Positions 28,404 through 48,197 of a DNA stretch of 64,000 bases are shown here, in pieces. The stretch comes from an uncultured Bacteroidota bacterium (GTDB taxonomy: Bacteria; Bacteroidota; Bacteroidia; Bacteroidales; WCHB1-69): positions 262,202-326,201 of the forward strand of contig CADCNH010000001.1 in assembly GCA_902802755.1 (NCBI GenBank). Direction: 5' to 3'. The notes below the pieces were generated by a model, which saw only the letters and a list, made by a program, of their open reading frames with translations, was not told where the DNA came from and did not search any database. The position numbers were made by a program, and so were the translations under genes. Numbering within the stretch: position 1 is the stretch's first letter; each line of letters opens with the position of its first letter.

Positions 28404-30197
28404 ATGTCAAATTACAAGTATCACATATTGATTTGTGGCGGTACAGGATGCCATGCGTCTGAAAGTGCCAAAATCAAAACGAATTTTGAAACTATTTTAG
28501 CAGAAAAGAACCTGGCTAATGACGTGCAAGTGATTGGTACCGGTTGCTTCGGCTTCTGCGAGAAAGGCCCTATCGTTAAGATTCTGCCCGACAACACTTT
28601 CTATGTTCAGGTAAAACCTGAAAACGTGGAAGAAATTATCAACGAGCACATCATCAAGGGTCGTAAAGTGGAACGCTTGCTGTATGTTGACCCCAAAACC
28701 CAGCAGCACAAGGAAGACTCCAAACACATGGGCTTCTACAAGAAACAGATGCGTATCGCTTTGCGTAACTGCGGTTTCATCAATCCTGAAAACATCGACG
28801 AGTACATCGCTCGCGACGGTTACAAAGCTTTGGCCAGCGTGTTGGAAAGAAACGATCCTGAAGCTACTATCGAAGATATCAAGAAATCAGGCCTCCGCGG
28901 TCGTGGTGGCGCTGGCTTCCCCACAGGTATGAAATGGAGCCTCTGCCGTCAGAACAGCGCTGACCAGAAATACATGATCTGCAACGCTGACGAAGGTGAC
29001 CCGGGTGCATTTATGGATCGTTCCATCCTGGAAGGTGACCCGCACACTGTCATCGAAGCTATGGCTATCGGTGGTTTCTGTATCGGTGCCACCAAGGGTT
29101 TGATTTATATCCGTGCCGAATATCCGCTGGCTATCCACCGTTTGCAGGTGGCTATCTCCCAGGCTCGCGAAATCGGTCTGCTCGGTCCCGACATCCTCGG
29201 TTCAGGCTTCGATTTCGACATCGAATTGAGATACGGTGCTGGCGCATTCGTATGCGGTGAGGAAACCGCTCTGATCCACTCCATGGAAGGTATGCGTGGT
29301 GAACCTACTTTCAAACCGCCATTCCCCGCCGTTCAGGGTTACTTGAAGAAACCCTCTAACGTGAACAACGTTGAGACATTCGCTAACATTCCCGTTATCA
29401 TCAACAAGGGTTGGGAATGGTTCAGCTCAATCGGAACAGAAAAATCAAAAGGTACGAAGGTGTTCGCTTTGGCCGGTCAGATCAACAACGTCGGTTTGAT
29501 CGAGGTGCCTATGGGTATCACCCTTCGTGAAATCATTTATGAAATCGGTGGCGGTATCAAGGGCGGCAAGAAATTCAAAGCCGTTCAGACCGGTGGTCCT
29601 TCAGGCGGTTGCTTGACCGAGAAGTTCCTCGATACTCCTATTGATTATGAAAACCTCGTGGCAGCAGGCTCTATGATGGGTTCTGGCGGTATGATTGTTA
29701 TGGACGAGACTTCCTGTATGGTTTCAGTGGCCAAGTTCTATTTGGACTTCACTGTTGAAGAGTCTTGCGGTAAGTGCTCTCCCTGCCGTATCGGTAACAA
29801 GAGAATGTGCGAAATTCTCGACAAGATTACCAAAGGTCATGGTACCATGGAAGACCTGGACGAACTGCGTAACCTCGCCCACGTTATCAAAGACACAGCT
29901 CTCTGCGGCTTAGGACAGACTTCTCCCAACCCCGTATTGTCAACCATCGACAACTTCTGGGATGAGTATGTTGCCCACGTTGTGGATAAGAAATGCCCCG
30001 CCGGTCAGTGCAAGGCTCTGAAACAGTATGTTATCGATCCTGACAAGTGTAAGGGATGTACCGCTTGCGCAAGAAATTGCCCGGTTAACGCCATCTCCGG
30101 CACAGTGAAGAATCCGCACGAAATCGACCAGAAGGCTTGTATCAAATGCGGCACTTGCTATGAAAAATGTAAGTTTAACGCAATTAGTATAATATAA
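28404..30197 (+). CDS. hydB: NuoF-like NAD(H)/FMN subunit of bifurcating [FeFe] hydrogenase (HydB)
   Basis: 597 aa. N-terminal ILICGGTGCHAS 2Fe-2S domain, GLRGRGGAGFPTG FMN site, ESCGKCSPCR N3 cluster, and a C-terminal 2x[4Fe-4S]. Confidence 0.9.
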   Translation: MSNYKYHILICGGTGCHASESAKIKTNFETILAEKNLANDVQVIGTGCFGFCEKGPIVKILPDNTFYVQVKPENVEEIINEHIIKGRKVERLLYVDPKTQQHKEDSKHMGFYKKQMRIALRNCGFINPENIDEYIARDGYKALASVLERNDPEATIEDIKKSGLRGRGGAGFPTGMKWSLCRQNSADQKYMICNADEGDPGAFMDRSILEGDPHTVIEAMAIGGFCIGATKGLIYIRAEYPLAIHRLQVAISQAREIGLLGPDILGSGFDFDIELRYGAGAFVCGEETALIHSMEGMRGEPTFKPPFPAVQGYLKKPSNVNNVETFANIPVIINKGWEWFSSIGTEKSKGTKVFALAGQINNVGLIEVPMGITLREIIYEIGGGIKGGKKFKAVQTGGPSGGCLTEKFLDTPIDYENLVAAGSMMGSGGMIVMDETSCMVSVAKFYLDFTVEESCGKCSPCRIGNKRMCEILDKITKGHGTMEDLDELRNLAHVIKDTALCGLGQTSPNPVLSTIDNFWDEYVAHVVDKKCPAGQCKALKQYVIDPDKCKGCTACARNCPVNAISGTVKNPHEIDQKACIKCGTCYEKCKFNAISII

Positions 30198-30211
30198 AAA
30201 GCACATAATCA

Positions 30212-32002
30212 ATGGATACAGTAAAATTAACAATAGATAATAGAGAAGTTGAAGTGCCGAAAGGTACAACTATTCTGAAAGCCGCTCAGAAACTGGGTAT
30301 CGATATTCCTACCCTCTGTCATTTTGAGCTGGAAAATCTGCATGTTCACAACAGACCAGGCGGATGCCGTATTTGCGTGGTTGAGGTGGAAAAACGTAGA
30401 AACCTCGCTCCTGCCTGCGTTACCGAATGTATGGAAGGCATGGTAGTGAAAACCAACTCCATCCGTGTAATCAATGCCCGTAAAACCGTGTTGGAACTGA
30501 TCCTCAGCGACCACCCGGCAGATTGTTTGCAGTGCGCCAAGAGCGGCAGATGCGAATTGCAAGACCTTGCTGTCCGCTTCGGTATCCGCGAAAATCCTTA
30601 TATCGGAAGCAATCACGAAATGTCAAGCTATCAGGTGGAAGTTTCTCCTTCCATCATCCGCGATATGAACAAGTGCGTTATGTGCCGTCGTTGCGAAATG
30701 ATGTGTAACGAAATGCAGACCGTGGGTGCCCTGTCAGCTATCGAACGTGGTTTCCCGGCAGTGGTCTCCACCGCTTTCAACCAGCATCTGGATCACTCAC
30801 CCTGTACCTTCTGCGGTCAGTGTGTGGCAGTATGCCCCGTTGGTGCTTTGACCGAGGTTGACCATACCTCCAAAATCATCCGCGCTATCGCTGATCCTAC
30901 CAAGAAGACCGTTGTACAGGTGGCTCCCGCTGTGCGTGTGGCCCTCGGTGAAGAATTCGGTATGGAACCCGGTTCTATCGTTACTGGCAAGCTGACCGCC
31001 GCTCTGAAAGCTCTCGGTTTCGACTATGTATTCGATACTGACTGGAGCGCCGACTTGACCATCATGGAAGAAGGTACCGAGCTCATCGGCCGTCTGACCA
31101 AATATTTGGCTGGCGACAAGAGTGTTCCGCTTCCCATCCTCACTTCATGCTGCCCCGCTTGGGTGAAATTCTTCGAACACCAGTTCCCCGATATGTTGGA
31201 TCTTCCTTCAACCGCTAAATCACCGCAGCAGATGTTTGGCGCTATCGCCAAATCATATTTCGCAGAGAAGATCGGTTGCAAGCGCGAGGACATGATCAGT
31301 GTATCTGTGATGCCCTGCTTGGCCAAGAAATACGAAGTTGGCCGTGATGAGTTCAAGGTGAACGGTAATCCTGATGTGGATTATTCAATCTCTACTCGTG
31401 AGTTGGCTCGCTTGATTAAGTTGGCTAATATCGACTTCACCGCTCTTCCGGATGAGAAATTCGACAGTCCTCTTGGCGAATCAACCGGTGCCGCTGTTAT
31501 CTTCGGTACCACTGGTGGTGTAATCGAAGCCGCCGTTCGTACCGCTTACGAAGTGATTACTAAGAAACCTCTCCCGAAGATCGACTTCGAAGAACTCCGT
31601 GGTCTGGAAGGTGTTCGTTCGGCTACCGTTGATGTTGACGGCCTGAAACTGAACATCGGTATCGCTCACGGTCTGGGCAACGCCCGTAAGTTGTTGGAAG
31701 ACATCAAGGCAGGTAGGAGCCAGTTCCATGCTATCGAAATCATGGCATGTCCTGGTGGTTGTATCGACGGTGCCGGTCAGCCTCAGCACCATGGTAATAG
31801 TGATATTATCAAGGCTCGTTGGGAAGCTATCTACCGTGCCGATAGAGAAATGCCTATCCGTAAATCTCACGAGAACCCGTCCATCCAGGCTATCTACAAA
31901 GAATATCTGGGCGAACCTTGCGGTCACAAGTCACACGAATTGTTGCACACGCATTACTTCGACAGACAGACCACCGTGGAAGTGGATGTGGACAAAAAGT
32001 AA
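30212..32002 (+). CDS. hydA: [FeFe] hydrogenase catalytic subunit, group A (HydA)
   Basis: 596 aa. N-terminal 2Fe-2S and 4Fe-4S domains. H-cluster motifs TSCCPAW, MPCLAKKYE and EIMACPGGCIDGAGQP. Confidence 0.95.
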   Translation: MDTVKLTIDNREVEVPKGTTILKAAQKLGIDIPTLCHFELENLHVHNRPGGCRICVVEVEKRRNLAPACVTECMEGMVVKTNSIRVINARKTVLELILSDHPADCLQCAKSGRCELQDLAVRFGIRENPYIGSNHEMSSYQVEVSPSIIRDMNKCVMCRRCEMMCNEMQTVGALSAIERGFPAVVSTAFNQHLDHSPCTFCGQCVAVCPVGALTEVDHTSKIIRAIADPTKKTVVQVAPAVRVALGEEFGMEPGSIVTGKLTAALKALGFDYVFDTDWSADLTIMEEGTELIGRLTKYLAGDKSVPLPILTSCCPAWVKFFEHQFPDMLDLPSTAKSPQQMFGAIAKSYFAEKIGCKREDMISVSVMPCLAKKYEVGRDEFKVNGNPDVDYSISTRELARLIKLANIDFTALPDEKFDSPLGESTGAAVIFGTTGGVIEAAVRTAYEVITKKPLPKIDFEELRGLEGVRSATVDVDGLKLNIGIAHGLGNARKLLEDIKAGRSQFHAIEIMACPGGCIDGAGQPQHHGNSDIIKARWEAIYRADREMPIRKSHENPSIQAIYKEYLGEPCGHKSHELLHTHYFDRQTTVEVDVDKK

Positions 32003-32028
32003 TTAGTAATCAAGAAAAATTCAGAACA

Positions 32029-32535
32029 ATGGATAAGAAGATAATTGTAAAAATGAAAAAAGAAGTTCGGGAGAAAATTGTTGAAATTTGCAACCGCTTC
32101 AATAACAATCCCGGCGAATTGATCAATGTTTTGCACCAAACGCAGGACTATTTAGGCTATCTGCCCGCTGAAGCTCAGGAACTGATTGCCGAATGTCTGC
32201 ACATCCCGACTGCCAAGGTTTATGGTGTGGTTTCTTTCTACGCATTCTTCACCATGACCCCCAAAGGAAAATATCCTATTTCCGTATGTTTGGGTACTGC
32301 ATGCTATGTTCGTGGCGCAGAGAAAATCCTCGACGCATTCAAGAAGGAATTGGACCTCGAAGTGGGCCAAACCACTTCCGACGGCATGTTCTCGTTGACT
32401 TGCTTGCGTTGCGTGGGTGCTTGCGGTCTGGCTCCCGTTGCCATGGTTGGTAACAAGGTTTATGGCCGTTTGGCTCCCGCTGATGTGAAAAACATCGTGA
32501 AGGAGTTCAAGGACTTGGAAGCAGCCAACGCCTAA
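32029..32535 (+). CDS. hydC: NuoE-like [2Fe-2S] subunit (HydC)
   Basis: CLGTACYVRGA and CLRCVGACGLAPV. Start at MDKKIIV (32029) rather than 31918, which overlaps hydA. Confidence 0.9.
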   Translation: MDKKIIVKMKKEVREKIVEICNRFNNNPGELINVLHQTQDYLGYLPAEAQELIAECLHIPTAKVYGVVSFYAFFTMTPKGKYPISVCLGTACYVRGAEKILDAFKKELDLEVGQTTSDGMFSLTCLRCVGACGLAPVAMVGNKVYGRLAPADVKNIVKEFKDLEAANA

Positions 32536-36193: not shown

Positions 36194-36490
36194 TCACATT
36201 CTCGAACTACAAATCCTATTTTTGTATTCTAAATATTTGCTGTGTTGTCCCCGACCATTTTTTAAGGTGAAAAAATTGCACCTTAAAAAATCATATTCTT
36301 CTTTTGTTAGCTCAAACATAAAATCTGTAGGAAATCGCACTATATTCATTCTTACTGCTCGCTTCAGATTTTTAGTCTCAATTCCATAAAGGGCGGCAAG
36401 GTCACTGTCAATCATTACATTTCTTCCACGTACATCATAGATAAATGGTTTTATACTGTCTGGACTAACTAGGTCAATTTTATTTTCCAT
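36194..36490 (-). pseudogene. truncated ORF6N (KilA-N-like DNA-binding) domain gene
   Basis: 98 aa. Aligns to the N-terminus of the 202-aa paralog at 60676-61284 up to GRGQHSKYL, then diverges and stops. Confidence 0.6.
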
Positions 36491-37101: not shown

Positions 37102-37785
37102 ATGACTAATGAGCCACATGAAGGGTATGTGTATATCCTTACAAATCAGAGTTTCAAAGAAGATTGGGTGAAAATAGGAAAGAGCTCTCGTCCTGTAGAT
37201 GTGCGCTCTAAGGAATTGGATAATACAGCAGTCCCGCTTCCTTTTGAGATTTACGCCACAATGAAAACCTGCAAATATAACGAGGTTGAGAAATTGGTAC
37301 ATAAAACAATTGACCGACTCACAGATTTGCGAATCCGACAGAATCGGGAGTTTTTCAATGTTGCGCCACAAGTAGCATTAGATATTTTCAGAGATATAGC
37401 TATTACGATAGATGATGCGGAAGTGACATTGTATGAGAATAACCAACCGATAAAAGAGTCAAAATCAAAAAACAAAGAAGAATCGGTACTAAAGCTGCAT
37501 AGTAAACATAATCCTCGTCCAAGGTTCAAATTCAGTATGGTGGATATCCCAATTGGTTCTACGCTGATTTTTATTCCTACTGGATTGCAAGTGAAAGTTG
37601 CCAGTGATGATCAAGTGGAATATGAAGGACGCATTTATAAGCTTTCACCATTTGTGGGAACATTTATGCCCGAAGAAAAGCGTAATACTTCCGGCTCATA
37701 TCAAGGTGCAAAGTTTTTTACATACCATGGCCGAGTATTGGATGATTTGAGAACGGAGAAGGAAAAAGAAATTGGAGAGGAATAA
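37102..37785 (+). CDS. GIY-YIG-like T5orf172 (MUG113) domain protein with DUF4357-like C-terminal domain
   Basis: 227 aa with GYVYILTN...VKIGKS...RSKEL...PFEI...REFF. The C-terminal FKFSMVDIPIGSTLIF...VEYEGRIYKLSPF resembles DUF4357 (from memory). Confidence 0.7.
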   Translation: MTNEPHEGYVYILTNQSFKEDWVKIGKSSRPVDVRSKELDNTAVPLPFEIYATMKTCKYNEVEKLVHKTIDRLTDLRIRQNREFFNVAPQVALDIFRDIAITIDDAEVTLYENNQPIKESKSKNKEESVLKLHSKHNPRPRFKFSMVDIPIGSTLIFIPTGLQVKVASDDQVEYEGRIYKLSPFVGTFMPEEKRNTSGSYQGAKFFTYHGRVLDDLRTEKEKEIGEE

Positions 37786-37819: not shown

Positions 37820-38818
37820 ATGGCAACAAACAAGAATGCACTGATTAGATACCAGGCTTTGGATAGATGTTTTAGCAATTATCGGAAGTGTTATTACATA
37901 GAAGATCTTATCGAGGCATGTAATAATGCCTTGTCCGAATATAACAGTAGCACATCGGGAGTTCAACGAAGACAGATTTTCGATGATATAAACTTTATGA
38001 AAGACCCTTTGGGTTATGATGCGCCTATTGAATCCATTAAAGACGGTAAGCGTGTTTATTACAGGTATTCTGATAAAGAATATACTATTAATAAACAGCC
38101 TTTAAACCCAGCTGAGGCTCAAGCATTAACAGATACTATTGCTATGTTGGGTAGGTTCAAAGGTTTGCCCAATTTTGAGTGGATGGAAGAAGTGACTGGA
38201 AAGTTGGAAACTGCTTTCAGTCTAAATGATTCTCCTGATAATATTGTTGGTTTTGATCAAAATATTGACTTAAAAGGTCTAAGATTCTTTGCTCCTTTGT
38301 TTGAATATATTGTTGCAAAGAAAACAATTCGAGTGAAATATACTCCCTTTAATAAGGATACCACAGAGATTGTTATTTCACCATATTATTTGAAGCAGTA
38401 CAATAATCGATGGTTTCTATTTGGGAAATGTCAAGGTTTCGATAATCTTACAAACATTGCGTTAGACAGAATAGACAACATTAAGGAGGGGAAAGAGCCT
38501 TTTGTTGAGAATACCACCTTTGACTTCAATGAGTATTTTGAAGATATTGTCGGGGTAACTCATCCTAAAGAAGGAAAAGAACAAAAAGTTGTTTTGAAAG
38601 TTGCAGATGATTTTTTAGGCTATTTTCTAACAAAACCCGTCCATGGTTCTCTAAAGAAACGGTCAACTAATATCTTTGAACTGAAACTTATCCCTAATTA
38701 CGAATTGGAAATATATTTGTTTAGTCATTCTGATAAAATAAAAGTACTCGAACCTGAATCTCTCAAAATTGCTATTCTCAACAGGATAGAAGAGGCTTTG
38801 GAATGTCAGGAAAAATAA
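37820..38818 (+). CDS. WYL-domain transcriptional regulator (BrxR/CapW-like)
   Basis: 332 aa. The N-terminal region looks wHTH-like. The central WYL core is ISPYYLKQYNNRWFLFGK, followed by a C-terminal WCX-like region. Confidence 0.8.
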   Translation: MATNKNALIRYQALDRCFSNYRKCYYIEDLIEACNNALSEYNSSTSGVQRRQIFDDINFMKDPLGYDAPIESIKDGKRVYYRYSDKEYTINKQPLNPAEAQALTDTIAMLGRFKGLPNFEWMEEVTGKLETAFSLNDSPDNIVGFDQNIDLKGLRFFAPLFEYIVAKKTIRVKYTPFNKDTTEIVISPYYLKQYNNRWFLFGKCQGFDNLTNIALDRIDNIKEGKEPFVENTTFDFNEYFEDIVGVTHPKEGKEQKVVLKVADDFLGYFLTKPVHGSLKKRSTNIFELKLIPNYELEIYLFSHSDKIKVLEPESLKIAILNRIEEALECQEK

Positions 38819-38898: not shown

Positions 38899-41800
38899 AT
38901 GAAAAATATTTCTTGGTCTGAAGATAAAGTTGTTTCAGTTATTAATGAGTTTAATGATGCTATTGAAAACTTGCGTGAAAAAACATCAGATTTCAAGCAT
39001 TTTGATTTTGTAAAGAGCTGTCTCTTATATATGAAACAGGCCAAGATGACGGATGCATGGGAAATCGAAGACAATATTATTGGATCTTCCATGTTGGATT
39101 ATTTCAATAAAATAACAAAATCGAAGAAAATCTCGATAAAAACAGATGATAGGCAAAAAACTGTTTTATTGCGGGATGAAATCCGCAATATATTTGATGC
39201 AACATTGGGCAAGATTCCACAAAATAAAATTAATATAGATTATTATAGGCGTCGATATATAATGAATCTGGCTATCTATTGTATCCTTAATTATGATAAT
39301 ATTGACATTTCCTCAAAACAAGATTTTTTAAAACTTGTGGATCTGTTAACTGAAACGAAAGATGCGGATAATAATTCAAAAAAAACATCTTCTCCTCATA
39401 AAATTTGGTATTTTAGTCAAGATTGTCATTTCTTTATAAAGGGGTTGGAATCCTTGATGGATTTTGTTTTCCTAAAAGAAGAAATATCATTGGAAAGTAA
39501 AATCACCTGTGAATTTAACAATCTTGAAGAAGCTTACCTGTTTTATCTTGCTTTTAGTGATGAAAAAGTAAATTTAACCTTGAAAAATTATACTGTTCTC
39601 ATAAATCAATCATCTGCTAGAGATTGTGAGAAGTTTGATGTTTATATCGACAACAATATTGATTATAGTCAAATTGATAATATAATGCGGAAACTAAAGC
39701 CTTCTGGTATTGTTGTTGCGGGATTGTCAAAGCCTATTATTAAAGGCGAGAATAATGATGTGAGAAAATTATTTGACAATCAAATGGTTAGATGTGTTAA
39801 GACTAATGGAGTTGATAGAGGTTGGTTAAAAATAAACATCAACGATAAAAAATATTATTCCGTAGATTTTTATTCATTGGAGGGTGAATATTATCGGTAT
39901 ATTATGTATGATGACATAGTTAAATTAAACTATTCTTTGGATATTGACAAATACCGTGTTCTCGAAAAAATTGATGAATTTATAGAAATTACAGATGCCC
40001 TTCCTATTGGTGAGCGACTCACCAGTGGAATACAATTTATTATTCCTTATTTCAAGAAAAATTACAAAGATTTGCTTGAAAGATGGTTGGATGGTATAAA
40101 TGATTGGGATGTCATTAAAGAGCAATGTAAGAATTATAAAGATTGTTCGGCAAGAATCCAAGTAATAGAAGCTTTCTTATATTTTCATGATTGTATTTGT
40201 GATGAGGAATATCTCAATGATGCCAAATATCAGCAGTTTCTTAATGCTATAAGAATTATTGACTCAATTGATAATGATACTTTCCAGAGATACTACCTTG
40301 ACATTATCGAACGGTTATGTAAGAACAATATCAGTGATTTTTACATGTCTCAATATCAATTTATTGAATCCCAATTAAAGGATGTCGAGAAGTCGAAAGT
40401 TGTCATTAGAAAGGATCAATTTGCTAAATTTCTTTATCCAGGAGAAATGTCTTCCAGACAAATAATATCAACAGGGGAATATGTTCTCGAATGGAGCAAT
40501 ATTCTTAATCCTCGGGCTTTAAAAGCTCAGAACATAGAAGTTGGAATGTTCGTTGATAATGATCAGCTAGAAAGTTCTATTTGTACTGCTACACAATATA
40601 TTATTTTCAATGCATATAATAATAAGTTTTATGAAATTGACCACAATGATGATTGGATGACGGATGTAATTATTGACATTCATAATGATATTCGTGGTAT
40701 AAGTTACCATTTTGATTCCTATGAAAACGATGATACTTCTATATTAGTGGAACTTAATCCAGGCGGAACATTAGTGAACTTTGTGATGAAAAAAGATTTG
40801 GAAGAATGTCAAGACATAATTGAATATTACATCACAAACAACCTCATTGAAAAAGTTATTAGCCTTAACAATCGCTATCTGCTTTTTATTTCGAAAGATA
40901 AGAAAGATGACAAAGTTATTTTAGCGAAGTTCAACCATATAGACGATGAAAGATGGATGGAATCCTATCCAGCAATGATAGAAGAGTTGGCTTTGCAAAA
41001 AGACACCCAACATGTGAGAATCTTGTCGAATGAGGATTTTGCAAAAAATAACTATTCACTTTCCACTGAACATTACTTTACAACTGAGGTGTCCACCGGT
41101 GTAGAGACCATTCTTCACTCCATAGTGTCACGACATCGTGGAAAATATGCCTTGATAGACATTCTTCTGAATGTGTTAGTGAGAATCGGCACACTATACC
41201 ATCAAGGGGATGAGGATTCCTTCATCAATTCTCTTGATGTAAAGAAGTTAAGTGAGGTGTATGACAGTTTGCAGGAATATGAAGAATATTTGATGGATCA
41301 TTACAGAGAATGTGTTGATGCCATTATCAATATCTTTGGTTCAGAAGATGCTTCGTACGAATTTTTTCAACCTGAGGTGGCGAAATTAATGGTGGCACTC
41401 CAAGGTTCCAACAAAATTCAGAAGTTGTATAATCCATTTGCTGGCCCAGCCACTTTCTCGTGTTTTTTGCCAGAGTCCATTTATTGTGGTAATGAAATCA
41501 ATAAGTCCATTCATACATTAGGTTTATTCAGGTTAGATGCCCACGGATTGGATCAGCAAGGATTTCATTGTGAGGACTCGGTAGATTTTGTACAATTACT
41601 TCCTAATAAGGAAAAGTATGATACGATTCTTTCTATTCCGCCTTTTATACCCAAAGAGGAGCAATCTCTGTATAGTTTTCTGTTTGATGAATGTATGTCA
41701 CATCTGAAGAAAACCGGCAAAATGACCATTGCTGTTCCTGCAGGTTTCACATTCAATAGCTCACCCAAAATGCAGGCTATTCGTCAAAAACTCGTTGAGA

Positions 41801-43317
41801 ACAATTGGGTAGAAAAAGTGATAGCTTTACCCAAAGGCAGTTTCCGAGGAACTAATGTGGGCACATGCTTGATTCAGTTTTCAAAGAAGTCTAATCGTGA
41901 AGTGCTATTCTGTGATGCGACTCAAATGGTTAAGCACAATAGAAATAAAGTAGAAATTCAAACTGACGATATTGTTGCTGCAGTCAAAAATATAGATACC
42001 GACTATTGTTATAGTATTTCTTATTCAGAGATTATCAACAACAACTATTCTATTAATCCCATCGTGTATAAACCATCCCCAACACAAGAAGGATTGACTA
42101 CATTCAAATTGGGTGACTTAATGACAAGTGTTCAACCTGAGAAATTTTCTGATGATACAGGATTGATTTTCTCTCCAGACTTGCTTTCATCTGATGTGGT
42201 GGATTACCATAGAACATTATCGGATTTAAAAATGGATTTTCTCAACGATTTGATGGTAAAAGTGCAGGGTGAGGCATTATTACTTTCGTCCATTCAAGGT
42301 TCCTTAAAGCCCACATACTTGGAGGTTAGTCCGGATGTTTGTTATTATGTTAATCGCAACATTCTGGCCTTCAAAGTAGATACAAATAAGGTATTGCCCG
42401 CTTATTTATGCTATGCATTAACTCAGCCAGAAGTATTACACCATATTGACTTTTTTAGAACTGGTGTTATTGCCAATATTATTTCTGATGATTTATTAAA
42501 CATCCATATCAATTTGCCAAAATTATCTGCACAAAGAAGCATGGTTTATGAAGTTTCTCGCCAGCGATATGCGGAGAAAAAACAGGAACTTGCCATGATG
42601 TATGGGACCGCTTATACGGAGAAAGAGGAAGAGTTTAAGTCCTTGAGGCATGCCATGCGTCCTTCTGTGACAGGTATTAGCTCCGCTGTAGATAATCTAT
42701 ACAACTATTTTGAAAAAACGGGGCAGTTATCCACAGTTGTCCATGGGCGCAGAGGATCAACTATTGCGGATAAACTTGCTGTGATTAAGAATGAAATTCA
42801 TCATATATCTGTTCTTATTAAACAAGGTGCCGATTTTTTGGATATTTCAAAATATCCATTGACTTCAGTAACTGTTGGAGACATCTGGAATCATGTGAAT
42901 TATGAGACAGAAAAATTTACTATCAGTAAATCAAAGTCTTTGGTTGATACCATAGCAGATTTTACTGTCAGGATGAATCTTGATTTGTTTAAGATGTTAA
43001 TTAATCTCATTATGTCAAACGCAGAGGTGCATGCTTTCTCAAATAATGATTCTGCAAATAATGTTCGAGTAGAAGCCACTTGTGATAACGAATCGCTTAC
43101 AATGTATATATCCAATAATGGAAAACCATTTCCCAAAGATGTGGATATCAAAAATTTCACCAAGAGATATTGGTCTGCAGGAGAACATGGGGGCAGTGGA
43201 GTAGGTGGAAATGATATTCTGAAAATCATGATGGCTTTTCAAGGCAAGTTTGAGCTTAAAACCGCTTACAAGGATTCATACCCAACATGCTATGTGTTAA
43301 AATTCCCTATTGAATAG
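38899..43317 (+). CDS. giant multidomain protein: 2 degenerate MTase-like modules + N6-adenine-MTase-like module + HsdS-type TRD + histidine-kinase transmitter (HisKA-like + HATPase_c)
   Basis: 1472 aa. Motif I LYNPFAGPATF (41431-41457). Motif IV-like SIPPF (41632-41646). TRD hallmarks FKLGDL, NRNILAFKV and INLPKLSAQRSMV. H-box SLRHAMRPSVTGI (His at 42649-42651). N box LIMSNAEVHAF. G boxes SNNGKPF and GGSGVGG. Confidence 0.75.
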   Translation: MKNISWSEDKVVSVINEFNDAIENLREKTSDFKHFDFVKSCLLYMKQAKMTDAWEIEDNIIGSSMLDYFNKITKSKKISIKTDDRQKTVLLRDEIRNIFDATLGKIPQNKINIDYYRRRYIMNLAIYCILNYDNIDISSKQDFLKLVDLLTETKDADNNSKKTSSPHKIWYFSQDCHFFIKGLESLMDFVFLKEEISLESKITCEFNNLEEAYLFYLAFSDEKVNLTLKNYTVLINQSSARDCEKFDVYIDNNIDYSQIDNIMRKLKPSGIVVAGLSKPIIKGENNDVRKLFDNQMVRCVKTNGVDRGWLKININDKKYYSVDFYSLEGEYYRYIMYDDIVKLNYSLDIDKYRVLEKIDEFIEITDALPIGERLTSGIQFIIPYFKKNYKDLLERWLDGINDWDVIKEQCKNYKDCSARIQVIEAFLYFHDCICDEEYLNDAKYQQFLNAIRIIDSIDNDTFQRYYLDIIERLCKNNISDFYMSQYQFIESQLKDVEKSKVVIRKDQFAKFLYPGEMSSRQIISTGEYVLEWSNILNPRALKAQNIEVGMFVDNDQLESSICTATQYIIFNAYNNKFYEIDHNDDWMTDVIIDIHNDIRGISYHFDSYENDDTSILVELNPGGTLVNFVMKKDLEECQDIIEYYITNNLIEKVISLNNRYLLFISKDKKDDKVILAKFNHIDDERWMESYPAMIEELALQKDTQHVRILSNEDFAKNNYSLSTEHYFTTEVSTGVETILHSIVSRHRGKYALIDILLNVLVRIGTLYHQGDEDSFINSLDVKKLSEVYDSLQEYEEYLMDHYRECVDAIINIFGSEDASYEFFQPEVAKLMVALQGSNKIQKLYNPFAGPATFSCFLPESIYCGNEINKSIHTLGLFRLDAHGLDQQGFHCEDSVDFVQLLPNKEKYDTILSIPPFIPKEEQSLYSFLFDECMSHLKKTGKMTIAVPAGFTFNSSPKMQAIRQKLVENNWVEKVIALPKGSFRGTNVGTCLIQFSKKSNREVLFCDATQMVKHNRNKVEIQTDDIVAAVKNIDTDYCYSISYSEIINNNYSINPIVYKPSPTQEGLTTFKLGDLMTSVQPEKFSDDTGLIFSPDLLSSDVVDYHRTLSDLKMDFLNDLMVKVQGEALLLSSIQGSLKPTYLEVSPDVCYYVNRNILAFKVDTNKVLPAYLCYALTQPEVLHHIDFFRTGVIANIISDDLLNIHINLPKLSAQRSMVYEVSRQRYAEKKQELAMMYGTAYTEKEEEFKSLRHAMRPSVTGISSAVDNLYNYFEKTGQLSTVVHGRRGSTIADKLAVIKNEIHHISVLIKQGADFLDISKYPLTSVTVGDIWNHVNYETEKFTISKSKSLVDTIADFTVRMNLDLFKMLINLIMSNAEVHAFSNNDSANNVRVEATCDNESLTMYISNNGKPFPKDVDIKNFTKRYWSAGEHGGSGVGGNDILKIMMAFQGKFELKTAYKDSYPTCYVLKFPIE

Positions 43318-43356: not shown

Positions 43357-44532
43357 ATGTCATATAAAGTATTATGGGTGGACGATGAATATGACACCCC
43401 GGCTTTACAAGAAGTTGCTGATTTAGCCTATGATAGAGGCATTAATATGGAAACCGGATGCAAATCAGCGGAAGAAGCATTGGCTCACTTGGAACATCCA
43501 AATGATTTTGACGCAGTAATTTTAGATGCACGATTCTTCAAATCAAAAAATGATACTATTGAAAGTCTTGGGAGGATGAAAGGACTACGGGAAGTAACAA
43601 AACGAATAGAACAATTAAAATCAGGCGGTTGTTATTTGCCTACATTTATCTATTCAGGTCAACCTGAGATATACAAGACAGAAGATTATTCTGACAATTA
43701 TGGGGAATATCCGTTGTTTCCTAAAGATGACGAAGGCACATATAAACTTTTCGATGCTATCATTAAAACGGTAAATGAAAGGGTTGAAACACAAATAAAA
43801 CTGAAATATGCCCCACTCTTTGATGTATGTGTTCCACGATATATGTTCAATTCTAATCTGACAGAACGACTATTGAATTATGCGGGACAACTTGAGCATA
43901 ATGATACGAAAAAAGTTGAGTATCTGAATGATATGAGGAAGCTAATAGAAGAGTTTTTTGGAAAATGTGAAGACGTTAGGCTTTTACCTTCCGGTTTAAC
44001 ATCGTGGACTGACAAAAGTAAGTTTCTGTGTGAAATTAAGATGCAAAAATTTATTCCAGCGTATGTCCAAGAATCCATCCGATTCATCCTCCGATGCACC
44101 CAAGAAGGATCCCATTATAGTGTTGCAGATTCTGATATGCGTAATGGAGTATCTCCTTTTTTGTTTCGCTCTTTGTTCTTCTCACTTTCTAATGTATTAG
44201 TTTGGTGGAAACAGTTTATTGACAGTAATCCAGATAAAGAGGAAATCAGTAAAGTTGTTATGGAGGATGGTCAGAACCAACAAGAAGTAAAATATTCAAA
44301 AGTAGAATTAAAGGGAGAAAAGGTCAAAGAATTTCAACCACAATCTAATAGTTATTTGGTTGAAAAGGATGATGAGGGATATTACCACTGTGGACCATAT
44401 CTGATGTCTCAAAAACATGGGAGCATCGTTGTAGGCAAAAAAGTTGTTATTGTTGAAGAAGAGGACAACACAAATTCAAATAGTCAAATATATCCCAAAT
44501 TTGCAAAACAGGTAAAAGTGGTGGGTAAGTGA
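43357..44532 (+). CDS. receiver (REC) domain protein with uncharacterised effector-like C-terminal region
   Basis: 391 aa. VLWVDDE acidic pair, AVILDARF (D57, nt 43525-43527), FIYSGQ and LFPKD. Middle region has RCTQEGSH (44092-44115). The C-terminal ~75 aa has a cold-shock/OB-like pattern. Confidence 0.7.
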   Translation: MSYKVLWVDDEYDTPALQEVADLAYDRGINMETGCKSAEEALAHLEHPNDFDAVILDARFFKSKNDTIESLGRMKGLREVTKRIEQLKSGGCYLPTFIYSGQPEIYKTEDYSDNYGEYPLFPKDDEGTYKLFDAIIKTVNERVETQIKLKYAPLFDVCVPRYMFNSNLTERLLNYAGQLEHNDTKKVEYLNDMRKLIEEFFGKCEDVRLLPSGLTSWTDKSKFLCEIKMQKFIPAYVQESIRFILRCTQEGSHYSVADSDMRNGVSPFLFRSLFFSLSNVLVWWKQFIDSNPDKEEISKVVMEDGQNQQEVKYSKVELKGEKVKEFQPQSNSYLVEKDDEGYYHCGPYLMSQKHGSIVVGKKVVIVEEEDNTNSNSQIYPKFAKQVKVVGK

Positions 44533-44757: not shown

Positions 44758-45780
44758 ATGGCAAAATCATCTTCAATTGATAGAAACGACTTGATGTTTT
44801 TCGAAATATGCGGAAGACAATACAAACTGACAGAATATGACGATGCAATTAAAGAAAATGAGGAATCACTAGCAAATTACTATTCTTTCCTCCAAGAGTT
44901 TCCTTATACAATCAGAAAATTATCTAGAGAATCGTTAGCATCGATTAAGGATGCTCCTGTTTTTTTGTTATATCGTAACAAAAGGATAAGTGTGTATGAA
45001 TTTCTTATAAGTAGCCGACTCTTTGAATCTCAACTTTCTCTTATTAAAGAAATCAACGGTCTAGAAATAAAATATGGATTGGCTAATAAGTTGATTGATA
45101 TACAGCAAAAAAAAGAAAATTATGCTATAAAAATAGAAACATATAGAGTCTTTCAGGATTTACATTATACAATGGCAACGGCCCGATGGGCATTAATACA
45201 GGCACATCGTATATTACATTTCAGTAGTAGTTTAAAATGGATAACAGGTTGGGAACAACTTTGGACACGTGCCACATGGTTAAACAATGCAATTCTTTTA
45301 TACAACTCCTGCTTTGACAAGTTGATATTATCAATATGGATTGGTTGTAAGGTTTTTGTTGGTTATTTAAAGAAAAATAGTAAGCCAGAAAAGGCACTCA
45401 ATATACAAAACTTAAATTCACAGGAAGGATTAAATCTGGTATATGAATGGTGTGATTATAATAAAATTAAAAATCGCTTGCCAGAAAAAATAAAAAACGA
45501 TATTAACTTAAAATATACAAACGAGCTAAAAAGAGTGAGAAATTATGCCAATAGAATTAAACACAGGGGTGGTATGAGATATAAAGACTTGTTTCCTTAT
45601 GACAATACTTACGATATTATTGAAGACACATTCTATGCTTCTACAAGAACACAAATATCTGATGATATAGATGATATTGTGGAAGAAGTGAAGAATTATC
45701 ATATTGTCTTATATGATTTGATACAAAAAGTTTATGAATACATTATAGGAGAAGTGTTTGATCAGGAGATTCATGAATAG
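44758..45780 (+). CDS. hypothetical protein (all-helical; possible HEPN-like C-terminal half)
   Basis: 340 aa, AT-rich. It has an LKRVRNYANRIKHRG helix, but the R-to-H spacing is outside the canonical Rx4-6H. Confidence 0.55.
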   Translation: MAKSSSIDRNDLMFFEICGRQYKLTEYDDAIKENEESLANYYSFLQEFPYTIRKLSRESLASIKDAPVFLLYRNKRISVYEFLISSRLFESQLSLIKEINGLEIKYGLANKLIDIQQKKENYAIKIETYRVFQDLHYTMATARWALIQAHRILHFSSSLKWITGWEQLWTRATWLNNAILLYNSCFDKLILSIWIGCKVFVGYLKKNSKPEKALNIQNLNSQEGLNLVYEWCDYNKIKNRLPEKIKNDINLKYTNELKRVRNYANRIKHRGGMRYKDLFPYDNTYDIIEDTFYASTRTQISDDIDDIVEEVKNYHIVLYDLIQKVYEYIIGEVFDQEIHE

Positions 45781-45814: not shown

Positions 45815-46474
45815 TTATATTGACATATTCTTCCACTTCTCGGGGATTCTGAAAGATTTATCACCGGCAGTAACTACATCATCCATAATGGATTTCAGGA
45901 ATCGGGGTAGGTTGTTTTTCATCAAGACAGGCTTGCTACGGTGCTGCAATAGCTTGTCTTTTATGTCATAACTATAATTTGTTGGGGGAAAATATACCTT
46001 GATGTTTTTCTGAGGAAATAATCTCTGTATATAGTCCAAAGGAGGGATAAGGTCGCTATCGGCACTCACTAAAGCTACTGTGTCTGTTTTGTCTTCCATG
46101 CAATCAGCTAACATTCGTACCGAAATGTTCACATCTGTTCTTTTCTCTTCTGGCTTTGAAATCGTCGCATTGCAGAAAGGGCAAGGGAAATATTTTTCCA
46201 TGTATTGTCCTCTAACAATCTCAAATTTTTCTCCGTTAATTAGTTTGTTTGCGTTAAGAAAAGAACTTTGACGACTGTTTTTTGACGGATTCATCGGACT
46301 AGCGGTAAAATAGACAACTTTTTCAAGTGTTTGATTTTCCCCAAGGAAACTCTCGCACAGTTTTACAACATCAATCCAATAACATTTTCCCCAATTTCTG
46401 TCTATGCTACGGGCTCGTTTAATTCCAAAATAGAAATTAAAACCATCAATATAGAAGGTAACTCTCTTTGTCAT
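45815..46474 (-). CDS. NYN (LabA-like PIN-fold) domain protein
   Basis: 219 aa with FYIDGFNFY, EKRTDVNISV and LVSADSDLIPP, plus a CPFC insert. Confidence 0.8.
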   Translation of the reverse strand: MTKRVTFYIDGFNFYFGIKRARSIDRNWGKCYWIDVVKLCESFLGENQTLEKVVYFTASPMNPSKNSRQSSFLNANKLINGEKFEIVRGQYMEKYFPCPFCNATISKPEEKRTDVNISVRMLADCMEDKTDTVALVSADSDLIPPLDYIQRLFPQKNIKVYFPPTNYSYDIKDKLLQHRSKPVLMKNNLPRFLKSIMDDVVTAGDKSFRIPEKWKNMSI

Positions 46475-46724: not shown

Positions 46725-48197
46725 ATGGATGGTAACCCTATGAAAGACGATACTCCCCGAATCCCTTGGCTCATCGCATTGGTGCCTTTTGCGGTGCTGG
46801 TGCTATTGCAGGTACTTGTGATCAAGCATTTTGGCTCCGACGCTATCGACGGGGCCAGCCAGACGGCATTGCTCTTTTCCGCCGCGGTGGCCATCGCTAT
46901 CGCCATGGTGGGCTACAAGGTGAGCTGGAAGACCATCAATGGGGCGATTGGCGACAACATCAAAACCATCGGCCCCGCCGTGCTGATTCTGTTTTTGATC
47001 GGTGCCATTTCAGGCAGCTGGATGATGAGCGGGGTGGTGCCTACCATGATATACTACGGCATGAAGGTCATCACGCCTTCACTCTTCCTTTTCATGGCTT
47101 GCCTAATTTGCGCCCTGGTGTCGTTGATAACGGGCAGCTCGTGGACGACTGTGGCTACCGTTGGTATTGCCTTGATTGGTATTGGCACAGCACACGGCTT
47201 TTCGGCGGGGTGGACAGCAGGCGCTATCATCTCGGGCGCATACTTCGGCGACAAGATTTCCCCGCTTTCTGACACAACGGTATTAGCTTCTTCGGTGGGC
47301 GAAGTGCCCCTGTTCAAGCATATTCACTATATGCTCATCACTACCGTGCCTTCTTTCACGATTGCACTGATTATTTTCTTGGTGGTGAGCCTGAACCATT
47401 CGGCTGCAAGTGGTGCCCAGGCGGCTTCTTTTGCCGAAGGACTGCAAAACAGCTTTGTCATCAGTCCCTGGTTGCTGTTAGTTCCGCTCTTTACCGCTAT
47501 CCTCATTGCTTTGCGCCTGCCAGCGGCTGTTATCCTGTTTTTGTCGGCTCTGGTGGCGGGAATGGTCATGCTGGTGGCCCAACCCCACATCGTGACACAA
47601 ATAGGGGAGGGCAACAATTTTCGTGGTTTGATGCTCACTTACTATAGCAGCACTTCCATCGATACGGGCAATGAAACGCTTACAAATCTGGTGCAAACCC
47701 GTGGTATGAAAGGCATGCTCAGCACAGTATTCCTCATTTTCTGTGCTTCCGCTTTCGGCGGCGCTCTCACCGGAGGCGGCATGATGAAGAGTCTCACCGG
47801 AGCATTAGCACGTGGCATTAGCGGCCGCCGCTCGTTGGTGACTACCACAGTGGGTACAGGTCTTTTTGCCAACATGGCCACAGGTGACCAATATCTCAGC
47901 ATTGTGCTCACAGGTAATATCTACAAGCAGCTATACAAAGATATGGGCTTTGAGGGGCGTTTGTTGAGCCGTTCCACAGAAGACTCTGCCACGGTTACCT
48001 CTGTGCTCGTTCCCTGGAACACCTGCGGTATGACGCAATCCATGGTGCTGAAAGTTCCCACATTAGAGTTCTTGCCTTACTGCTTCTTCAATCTCATCTC
48101 CCCGCTAATGTCCATCACTGTCGCTTTCATTGGCTATAAGATTTTCCGTCGTACTGATGATGAAGAAACAGAGGAATCAACAACGACAATCGATTAG
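46725..48197 (+). CDS. nhaC: Na+/H+ antiporter NhaC family
   Basis: 490 aa, ~11 TM helices, NhaC-like conserved blocks. The start may be at 46740. Confidence 0.85.
   Translation: MDGNPMKDDTPRIPWLIALVPFAVLVLLQVLVIKHFGSDAIDGASQTALLFSAAVAIAIAMVGYKVSWKTINGAIGDNIKTIGPAVLILFLIGAISGSWMMSGVVPTMIYYGMKVITPSLFLFMACLICALVSLITGSSWTTVATVGIALIGIGTAHGFSAGWTAGAIISGAYFGDKISPLSDTTVLASSVGEVPLFKHIHYMLITTVPSFTIALIIFLVVSLNHSAASGAQAASFAEGLQNSFVISPWLLLVPLFTAILIALRLPAAVILFLSALVAGMVMLVAQPHIVTQIGEGNNFRGLMLTYYSSTSIDTGNETLTNLVQTRGMKGMLSTVFLIFCASAFGGALTGGGMMKSLTGALARGISGRRSLVTTTVGTGLFANMATGDQYLSIVLTGNIYKQLYKDMGFEGRLLSRSTEDSATVTSVLVPWNTCGMTQSMVLKVPTLEFLPYCFFNLISPLMSITVAFIGYKIFRRTDDEETEESTTTID

Follow-up and report, generated by a model that had tools for sequence, protein, structure and literature searches.

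The stretch analysed here, referred to as the window, comprises 64,000 nucleotides from an uncultured bacterium of the order Bacteroidales (assembly GCA_902802755.1, contig CADCNH010000001.1, positions 262,202 to 326,201). It contains an intact open reading frame (ORF) for a protein of 1472 amino acids, which lies between the gene of a WYL-type regulator and, 40 bp downstream, the gene of a 391-residue protein with the features of a response regulator (Table 1). The N-terminal and central parts of the long protein appear to be built from pieces of a type I restriction-modification (R-M) methylase, namely three tandem modules resembling HsdM, which end at residues 352, 727 and 1058, and one target recognition domain (TRD) of the HsdS kind; its C-terminus resembles a histidine kinase. 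The reading that we favour, and consider probable though well short of certain, is that the ORF encodes a cytoplasmic sensor histidine kinase whose methylase-derived input region would be non-catalytic, and that it belongs to a new two-component defence module.

A Pfam search of the protein gave a single match above the cut-off, to N6_Mtase at residues 863-1058 (E 4.4e-19, covering only positions 81-303 of the profile), and a weak one to HATPase_c at residues 1368-1470. Twelve full-length homologues of the kinase, with 46-98% identity to the window protein, were found in a collection of 5.8 billion proteins, where the sole source name among them is "N-6 DNA methylase [Bacteroidales bacterium]". 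A profile of the N-terminal 740 residues, run exhaustively with HMMER against 1.84 billion representatives, recovered six proteins and none that would connect the family to ordinary methylases; the six are fragments of the family and one distant relative of full length, P0017, which shares the architecture (1569 aa, 29% identity). The same profile had zero matches among the sequences of the PDB (hmmsearch). A scan by pattern through ~186,000 species genomes returned two loci of the kinase, both in Bacteroidales metagenome-assembled genomes of rumen origin, and every named source of the family is a Bacteroidales bacterium. The family is real but very rare. The peptide strings that a first-pass annotation of this DNA had quoted from the protein are all present where it had placed them.

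Mean pairwise identity climbs along the protein from the N-terminus (module 1, 35%) to the kinase (74%), and module 1 is its fastest-evolving part (35-36%). The homologue P0010 is a clean recombinant, which follows P0009 from residue 1 to ~680 and P0012 from ~680 to the end; P0012 and P0009 have their first 260 residues in common and are only 31-54% identical over 262-650. The mosaic breakpoints among these three proteins are at window residues ~260 and ~680, the second of which falls within the near-invariant NHIDDERW stretch of lobe B. We read the gradient of conservation and the mosaic recombination as signs of a sensor engaged in an arms race.

An internal repeat of methylase lobes

The first-pass annotation had proposed, by eye, that the protein contains three tandem copies (lobes A, B and C) of a unit corresponding to the post-motif-IV lobe of N6-adenine methyltransferases. 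Self-BLASTP of the 1472-aa protein returned the identity match alone and no repeat, and BLASTP of its fragments against each other gave an E value of ~0.01 in a tiny search space, which is not significant. A first profile-profile comparison with hhalign, made with a 13-sequence alignment, gave the repeat a probability of only 0.5-10%, and the signal surfaced only after P0017, the corresponding lobes of sister proteins and canonical HsdM sequences had been added. With profiles from the 14-sequence family alignment, module 1 (1-352) matched module 2 (353-727) with a probability of 69% (E 4.5e-5) over 109 colinear columns, which pair residues 243-352 with 585-726; the comparisons of modules 2 with 3 and 1 with 3 were weak, colinear, and had the same C-terminal motif at their end. 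When the profile of lobe B was enriched with the single lobes of two sister proteins, its match to lobe A reached 95.3% (E 2.4e-8), and when the profile of lobe C was enriched as well, with three ordinary HsdM proteins from neighbouring loci, lobes B and C matched with 93.8% (E 1.7e-7, residues 618-726 against 935-1057). Either enrichment alone gave 88.8% and 79.3% for this second pair. Across three independent profile enrichments the probabilities were 92-95% for A-B and 79-94% for B-C.

Controls for each pair consisted of 40 column shuffles, 40 shuffles of 8-column blocks and one reversed profile. The A-B score of 51.4 compares with control maxima of 20.9, 22.9 and 14.0, respectively, and the B-C score of 48.9 with maxima of 17.5, 28.1 and 15.6. 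For A-C the score was 24.1 against 16.3, 27.4 and 10.7, which is not above the block-shuffle maximum. At the profile level, self-alignment therefore establishes a significant and colinear repeat (A-B 95%, B-C 94%, above the shuffles), although plain self-BLAST does not detect it.

All three lobes close with the motif (N)YSLxxxxY, which P0017 retains in its three modules and whose counterpart at the end of the catalytic domain in HsdM structures is NDYNLS (EcoR124I) or NDYNLN (3lkd). In addition, a lobe of the sister kinase at locus L008 (residues 396-492) forms a bridge, since in pairwise BLASTP it is similar to lobe B (E 1e-7) as well as to lobe C (E 8e-4). Since the direct comparison of A with C is weak and neither A nor B matches HsdM directly, the chain of homology runs from A to B to C and then from C to HsdM, and the homology of lobes A and B to HsdM rests on module 3 and the sister lobes as intermediates.

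The repeat that can be detected by sequence is the post-motif-IV lobe, in agreement with the unit first proposed, and the second copy is confirmed with a change in its bounds: it had been taken to start at residue 612, and its real start is at ~585, where TDVIIDIHND matches FDVYIDNNID. The helical N-domains of the three modules have no significant mutual similarity. A triplication of whole HsdM-like modules of ~330-375 aa, beyond their C-lobes, is likely, given the positions at which the modules end, the helical domain that precedes each lobe and the model of module 1.

This model was obtained with AlphaFold2 (AF2) for residues 1-740 and is confident only over ~1-370, with predicted local distance difference test (pLDDT) values mostly of 70-90. 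It contains a helical domain (8-151) and then, over residues 177-313, beta-alpha-beta elements in the order known from class I methyltransferases. The 50 Foldseek matches listed for module 1 against the PDB are essentially all of the class I methyltransferase fold, either S-adenosylmethionine (SAM) methyltransferases or spermidine synthases; the best is 2f8l (E 1.2e-4, 370 columns, TM-score 0.42), and type I methylases are among them, namely PacII (7vs4), the V. vulnificus methyltransferase (7eew) and EcoR124I HsdM (7bst_D). Module 2 was modelled in two runs, once as part of residues 1-740 and once by itself after the addition of P0017. What is predicted of it is a helical part (353-492) and a C-lobe (638-760, pLDDT 50-80), the latter with the order helix-strand-hairpin-strand-helix-strand, which is that of a methylase C-lobe, and Foldseek found no match below an E of 1 for this poor model. 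Structure prediction, which the first-pass annotation had suggested as a check on the three modules, hence speaks for a methyltransferase fold in module 1, with modest scores, and gives no usable model of module 2.

An explanation without common descent, in which modules 1 and 2 would be unrelated alpha/beta domains and their likeness to a methylase lobe would be convergent or an artefact of the profiles, has to be weighed at this point. It draws on the non-significant self-BLAST, on the 2-10% that the first hhalign runs gave to B-C and A-C, on a direct A-C match of 12% (E 2.4e-3) that stays inside the block-shuffle range, on comparisons of lobes A and B with three canonical HsdM proteins that are not significant (0.6-1.7% in hhalign), and on the poor model of module 2. 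Yet it would have to account for two colinear pairings of high probability that end in the same NYSLxxxxY motif and whose real scores exceed the maximum over 80 shuffles by a factor of 2-3, for one sister lobe that plain BLASTP relates to B and to C alike, for a module 1 model that matches only class I methyltransferase folds among the matches listed, and for the methylase-like order of helices and strands predicted for lobe B. We consider this explanation very improbable.

Eroded catalytic motifs, recognition domain and putative kinase core

Module 3 aligns with EcoR124I HsdM (7bst_D) with an E of 4.6e-15, its family profile matches the three canonical HsdM proteins with a probability of 98.9% in hhalign, and it is also matched by the MTase_I model of PADLOC. 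In the alignment with EcoR124I HsdM, KLYNPFAGPAT lies on KIYDPAAGSGS, and motif I, changed from D to N and from GxG to GxA, departs from the SAM-binding form (D/E)PxxGxG. Motif II is kept, with CGNEIN on FGQEIN (GNEI, E866 invariant). YDTILSIPPF lies on FDAIVSNPPY, which puts I913 at the site of the catalytic Asn and leaves S-I-P-P-F where the catalytic motif IV would read (D/N/S)PP(Y/F/W). In enzymes of this type, the side chain at that position hydrogen-bonds the exocyclic amino group to be methylated, and an aliphatic Ile cannot do so. In modules 1 and 2, none of the cofactor and catalytic motifs is left. The first-pass annotation had noted both the Ile in motif IV and an atypical motif I; the former is borne out by the alignment, and so is the latter, with FAGxA conserved in the homologues, but the canonical form it quoted, FxGxG, has to be replaced by the relevant one, (D/N)PxxGxG.

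The Ile at position 913 is invariant in 13 family members with 46-98% identity to the window protein, two of which have also lost the first Pro of motif IV (ILPF). P0017 reads STPPF, with Thr at the catalytic site, and NPFAGAE; a canonical NPPF or DPPY is not restored in the homologues, as the first-pass annotation had allowed for in case the Ile were peculiar to this lineage. The family alignment has N845, P846, A848, G849, A851, F853 and E866 as invariant residues around motifs I and II, and D908, I910, L911, I913, P915 and F916 around motif IV. Because the Ile and FAGxA are conserved over the family, we read the erosion of the motifs as an old, selected state and not as a quirk of one lineage. 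The invariance of E866 (motif II), F916 and F982 suggests that the pocket for the cofactor or the base is perhaps still used for binding.

The TRD-like domain that follows is matched by the Specificity_I model of PADLOC over residues 1077-1232 (E down to 9e-7); in P0017, the match to Methylase_S is weak. The end of the TRD runs as one predicted long helix into the EKEEEFKSLxHAM box. When a profile of the last 250 residues was compared with the PDB, the top four matches were sensor kinases of the HK853 type (2c2a, 3dge and others), with an alignment that is colinear over the dimerization and histidine phosphotransfer (DHp) and the catalytic and ATP-binding (CA) domains and that places H1251 on the phospho-His. 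The sister kinases also keep the His equivalent to H1251. HisKA of Pfam had no match in the window kinase or in the family members scanned; HATPase_c was found in 7 of the 7 members scanned (best E 6e-7), and the N, G1 and G2 boxes are invariant over the family. The protein ends right after the GHKL domain, with no S5-like MORC domain. We rejected its assignment to the MORC/paraMORC GHKL ATPases, as it has no S5-fold transducer and does have a His box upstream as well as a receiver partner.

This partner is the response regulator encoded by the next gene, whose receiver carries the motifs KVLWVDDE...DAVILD...IYSGQ...FxK. Pfam at default thresholds had no match in the 391-aa protein, and Response_reg appeared only weakly (E 0.16). 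An hhalign comparison with CheY, Spo0F, PhoB, OmpR and NtrC, five canonical receiver sequences, gave a probability of 96.2% (E 2.7e-9) and aligned D57 with D57 of CheY. D9/D10, D57, S100 and K123 are invariant in six close orthologues; in a wider set of 32 sequences D9, D10, D57 and K123 remain invariant, and S100 changes conservatively to Thr in P0048/P0049. Two of the homologues are named "response regulator" by NCBI. The output domain, of ~250 residues, has the invariant motifs TQxGSH, N..P.L and L.WW..FID. A HEPN RNase (Rx4-6H) was considered for it and rejected, since the Arg of RCTQEGSH is Gln in P0047 and only TQxGSH is invariant. A small C-terminal domain (YHCGPY) is also present in the regulator.

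The same residues bear on the alternative that module 3 is an active methyltransferase of an unusual kind, acting on adenine or otherwise, in a type IIG or orphan enzyme whose GHKL domain would be a MORC-like ATPase and whose N-terminal modules would be structural. Its homology to N6_Mtase is clear, motif II, the PPF and the Phe of motif VIII are conserved, the TRD is fused as in type IIG enzymes, and the Thr of P0017 has a hydroxyl at the catalytic position, as does the Ser of SPPY enzymes; GHKL ATPases are moreover said to be companions of R-M systems (reportedly by Iyer, Abhiman and Aravind in 2008). What makes this alternative improbable in our view is the aliphatic Ile, invariant in 13 members, with PP broken to LP in two of them, together with a motif I in which GxA has taken the place of GxG, and N that of D. 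A MORC-like ATPase is further at odds with a protein that ends after its ATP-binding domain, with an invariant His that aligns with the phospho-His of HK853, and with a receiver protein carrying D57 that is always encoded by the next gene; a sister kinase, finally, is without methylase motifs altogether.

The cassette and its genomic neighbourhood

The genes of the WYL regulator, the kinase and the response regulator lie side by side in one orientation, both in the window and in five homologous loci, among them that of P0017. A WYL gene is found in seven of the seven homologous or sister loci examined, with 63-78% identity and including the sister system L008, and the response regulator is encoded directly downstream of the kinase in all loci examined. 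Remoter homologues of the regulator (31-33% identity) sit behind HATPase_c proteins of ~1000 aa, which we call sister kinases. They have the TRD, the His helix and the ATPase domain in common with the window kinase and contain one degenerate lobe only; in one of them the TRD, DHp and CA are 30% identical to those of the window kinase over 420 aa (E 5e-54), the lobe is fully degenerate and N6_Mtase has no match. In L008 a 63%-identical WYL gene lies just downstream, and the contig of L010 is too short to show one. Since a sister kinase combines the TRD, DHp and CA with a single degenerate lobe, methylase chemistry would be dispensable to the TRD-kinase-regulator chassis, and these proteins suggest a broader TRD-kinase chassis in which the number of dead methylase modules varies. 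The coordinates of the features described here are compiled in Table 1.

Table 1. Features of the protein, of the window and of related loci. Positions are nucleotides of the window unless a locus (L001 to L010) is named; residues are those of the encoded protein.
Feature	Position	Strand	Residues	Remarks
ORF of the putative sensor histidine kinase	38899..43317	+	1472 aa	intact; pseudo-methylase input region
Module 1	38899..39954	+	1-352	helical domain ~8-151, degenerate Rossmann ~177-313; without SAM motifs
Lobe A, repeat copy 1	39625..39954	+	243-352	beta4 through C-terminal NYSLDxxKY
Module 2	39955..41079	+	353-727	helical 353-492, middle 493-637 without usable model, degenerate C-lobe
Lobe B, repeat copy 2	40651..41076	+	585-726	67% mean pairwise identity
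Module 3	41080..42072	+	728-1058	recognisable HsdM-like N6_Mtase domain, motifs eroded
Motif I remnant	41431..41457	+	845-853	N845-P-F-A-G-P-A-T-F853; canonical DPAAGSGS in 7bst_D
Motif IV remnant	41632..41646	+	912-916	S912-I913-P-P-F916; I913 on catalytic Asn of NPPY
Lobe C, repeat copy 3	41701..42069	+	935-1057	905-1057 in the first-pass annotation
Single HsdS-like TRD	42073..42522	+	1059-1208	ends INLPxLSxQ, HsdS-like signature
Long helix into DHp-like domain	42523..42888	+	1209-1330	invariant H1251 in EEEFKSLxHAM
H1251 codon	42649-42651	+	1251	invariant His, DHp-like helix
GHKL/HATPase_c domain	42889..43314	+	1331-1472	N box SNAExHAF, G1 NNGxPFP, G2 GSGxGG
Response regulator	43357..44532	+	391 aa	receiver ~2-135 (D9, D10, D57, S100, K123)
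D57 codon of response regulator	43525-43527	+	57	putative phospho-acceptor Asp
WYL/WCX regulator gene	37820..38818	+		Pfam WYL E 4e-11, WCX weak
T5orf172 / MUG113 (GIY-YIG-like) protein	37102-37785	+		PADLOC candidate family PDC-S57, E 1.6e-69
340-aa ORF	44758-45780	+	340 aa	no family match; VRNYANRIKHRGG near C-terminus
NYN-domain protein	45815-46474	-		PADLOC candidate system HEC-09, E 3e-50
ORF6N/Bro-N family genes	36194-36490 (window); L001 6761-7606; L004 3398-4342	- (window)		upstream edge of island
Window ORFs at flanks of apparent recurrent hotspot	28404-32535; 46725-48197	+; +		
Sister kinases	L008 1398-4412; L010 250-3249		~1000 aa	followed by 31-33% identical regulator
Ordinary type I HsdM/HsdS	L004 14847-19093; L006 13976-17036; L007 10364-13346			canonical NPPF; directly downstream of cassette

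The setting of the cassette is that of a defence island. The NYN/HEC-09 gene of the window is likely another defence gene of the same island, and the homologous loci carry AbiEii (AbiE), AbiJ, ATPases of the AAA_15/21 families and type I HsdM/HsdS; the type I pair adjoins the cassette in 3 of the 5 homologous loci. The T5orf172/PDC-S57 gene also lies upstream of the WYL gene in L001-L003 and is not present in the other loci. Genes of the ORF6N and Bro-N families, which are typical of phages and mobile elements, mark the edge of the island on its upstream side. The 340-aa ORF that follows the regulator was rejected as a fourth component of the cassette, as it is not conserved between loci; in its place, L004 and L007 have an unrelated pair of ~337 aa. 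No HsdR, ResIII or nuclease gene was found among the window neighbours scanned at 33-48 kb. The absence of a restriction partner, which the first-pass annotation had remarked on, thus holds for the immediate neighbourhood in the window and does not extend to the family, in which three loci carry type I methylase and specificity genes.

The island appears to occupy a recurrent hotspot. The cassette of the homologue P0004 (L001-L003) occupies the equivalent place in the chromosome, behind what appears to be the same hydrogenase-like operon and with other cargo behind the regulator (HTH_3, patatin). Just upstream in these loci lie ORFs of 597 and 596 aa, the lengths of those in the window, which are annotated as an Fe-hydrogenase/NADH-dehydrogenase-like operon. 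A Na+/H+ antiporter flanks the P0008 locus.

The adjoining type I genes also give some footing to a guard or decoy explanation, which keeps the signalling chain of the favoured reading and differs from it in the ligand alone: the pseudo-HsdM/HsdS region would mimic a type I methylase, and phage anti-restriction proteins (DNA mimics of the Ocr or ArdA type, or Stp-like peptides) would switch the kinase. There is precedent for such an arrangement, as the type I system EcoprrI is guarded by PrrC, and Ocr is what PARIS senses. Besides the HsdM/HsdS pair directly downstream in 3 of the 5 homologous loci, it would fit a TRD that is conserved and not hypervariable, and N-terminal modules that evolve fastest and recombine between members; the structural matches of module 1 also include the methylase-Ocr complexes 7eew and 7bst, where it is the methylase fold that is matched, which is no evidence of Ocr binding. 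Against it, no type I system adjoins the cassette in the immediate neighbourhood in the window and in two other loci, and the retention of F916, F982 and motif II fits the binding of a nucleic acid or cofactor at least as well. We hold this explanation to be unlikely, though less so than an active methyltransferase.

A proposed signalling route and its relation to known systems

Returning to the favoured reading of a sensor kinase with a non-catalytic input, the first-pass annotation had raised the possibility that the whole methylase portion has become a non-catalytic DNA or base-flipping sensor that feeds the kinase. The non-catalytic input finds comparative support in a C-terminus colinear with HK853 that bears an invariant His, in the D57 receiver encoded next to it and in a sister kinase with one degenerate lobe; the sensing of DNA or flipped bases and the signalling to the kinase are what we infer from it. 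In the mechanism that we propose, the HsdS-type C-terminal helix would run directly into the DHp helix with H1251, followed by the GHKL ATP-binding domain, and dimerization through DHp would pair two TRDs, as in an HsdS subunit. The assembly of pseudo-methylase and TRD would bind a nucleic-acid feature or a DNA-mimic anti-restriction protein without methylating it; the ligand may be foreign DNA or the state of its modification, or else a DNA mimic that counters restriction, the last being possible in view of the conserved TRD (56%) and of the type I systems that often adjoin the cassette. Movement of the helix on ligand binding would switch the autophosphorylation of H1251, the phosphate would pass to D57 of the adjacent response regulator and activate its output domain, and the WYL protein would control the expression of the cassette. 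That this amounts to something new, an R-M methylase complex that survives as a non-catalytic reader, made of a TRD and three dead HsdM modules, within an undescribed immune two-component system, in which foreign DNA, its modification state or a DNA mimic signals mechanically through the HsdS helix to the kinase and a His-Asp relay fires a new effector domain, is a proposal we make tentatively and with some doubt.

Several results weigh against this interpretation. In addition to the weak direct match of lobes A and C and the non-significant comparison of lobes A and B with HsdM, the Foldseek scores of module 1 are uniform but modest (best E 1e-4, TM-score 0.4-0.5), residues 493-637 of module 2 have a pLDDT below 40 in both AF2 runs, and the methylase fold proposed for module 2 is drawn from sequence profiles only. 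The invariant motif II, F916 and F982 could mean a cofactor or base pocket with, conceivably, residual or unusual chemistry. With 56% mean identity the TRD is not hypervariable, unlike specificity domains that track diverse DNA motifs. The alignment with HK853 is marginal (E 0.11), and the HATPase_c score of the full-length window protein, 20.5, is below the Pfam gathering cut-off of 26.4. The C-terminal output domain of the regulator matched nothing in Pfam, PHROGs, PADLOC or the PDB, and no PADLOC system model fits the cassette, the kinase matching MTase_I and Specificity_I only and the regulator nothing. The defence habit of the cassette, finally, is argued by association only, from its PDC-S57, HEC-09, Abi and R-M neighbours, the gradient of conservation and the mosaic recombination, and we would call it a defence-island module on that footing.

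Part by part, the protein has its closest homologues in HsdM and HsdS of type I systems and in class I histidine kinases, and its input region can be compared with the type I methylase, HsdM2-HsdS1, of systems such as EcoR124I and EcoKI. Module 3 is homologous to HsdM, the TRD resembles those of HsdS and ends in an HsdS-like LPxLxxQ helix, and as in the M2S1 assembly several methylase modules are combined with a recognition domain. Here, by contrast, a single chain holds just one TRD for three methylase-like modules, Ile stands in the place of the catalytic Asn, motif I is degenerate and the HsdS helix leads into a kinase core. A type I R-M system proper, which needs separate HsdM, HsdS (with two TRDs) and HsdR, was rejected for this single chain with one TRD. 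Loss of chemistry in a retained fold is known from eukaryotes, in which the pseudo-methyltransferase METTL14 (EPPL) binds RNA and partners the active subunit METTL3 (DPPW). Both METTL14 and the protein described here keep the class I methyltransferase fold, have the (D/N)PP(Y/F/W) motif destroyed and reuse the domain, in METTL14 for substrate binding; the present protein has no active copy, and its output would be a kinase.

Among defence systems, Detocs (DtcA-DtcB-DtcC), reportedly described by Rousset et al. in 2023 as a two-component-like system, resembles the cassette in its His-Asp phosphorelay for anti-phage signalling, its large cytoplasmic sensor kinase and its receiver-effector protein. 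It differs in that the cassette has an R-M-derived sensor instead of a TPR-like one, shows no evident buffer protein and has an effector domain that is unrelated or without a match; membership in Detocs was rejected, as the kinase matched no PADLOC model other than MTase_I and Specificity_I and the regulator none. Ambrosia, an experimentally validated anti-phage cluster of Pseudomonas, consists of five separate genes, for an N6 methylase, a HATPase kinase, a regulator with a receiver and a winged helix-turn-helix (REC-wHTH), an HNH nuclease and an XRE regulator; its methylase is predicted to be active, and mutating conserved residues abolished defence (10.1101/2025.09.30.679545). Both clusters combine an N6-adenine methylase, a HATPase-type kinase, a receiver and a dedicated transcriptional regulator, a likeness drawn from the description and not from sequence. 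In the present cassette, however, a triplicated methylase with dead motifs is fused to the kinase, the transcriptional regulator is of the WYL type, a conserved nuclease gene is missing and the output domain is without known relatives. We found no description of a methylase-TRD-histidine kinase fusion in the literature, where Ambrosia alone came close.

BREX PglX/BrxX is often preceded by the WYL regulator BrxR. Like the protein described here, PglX is a large N6_Mtase protein with an N-terminal helical domain and an embedded TRD; it is, however, catalytically active and works with BrxC, PglZ and BrxL. One study describes SAM-dependent DNA binding by PglX as needed for defence and methylation (PMC11842806). 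Membership in BREX was rejected, with no BrxC, PglZ or BrxL among the genes scanned in the window neighbourhood or the loci and no PADLOC BREX match.

As the family is very rare, the importance of these findings is conceptual rather than ecological. If the favoured reading is true, the regulator's output domain, which is without known relatives, would be a new effector, and the joined helices of HsdS and kinase would provide a directly testable model of signal transmission. An input that senses DNA or its mimics would join the short list of sensors of cytoplasmic histidine kinases, and the cassette would represent a second kind of link between R-M and two-component systems, alongside the recently reported Ambrosia. 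The family would then illustrate a route by which an enzyme complex of innate immunity becomes a pure sensor, with a type I methylase that loses its chemistry, is coupled to a phosphorelay and keeps its recognition.

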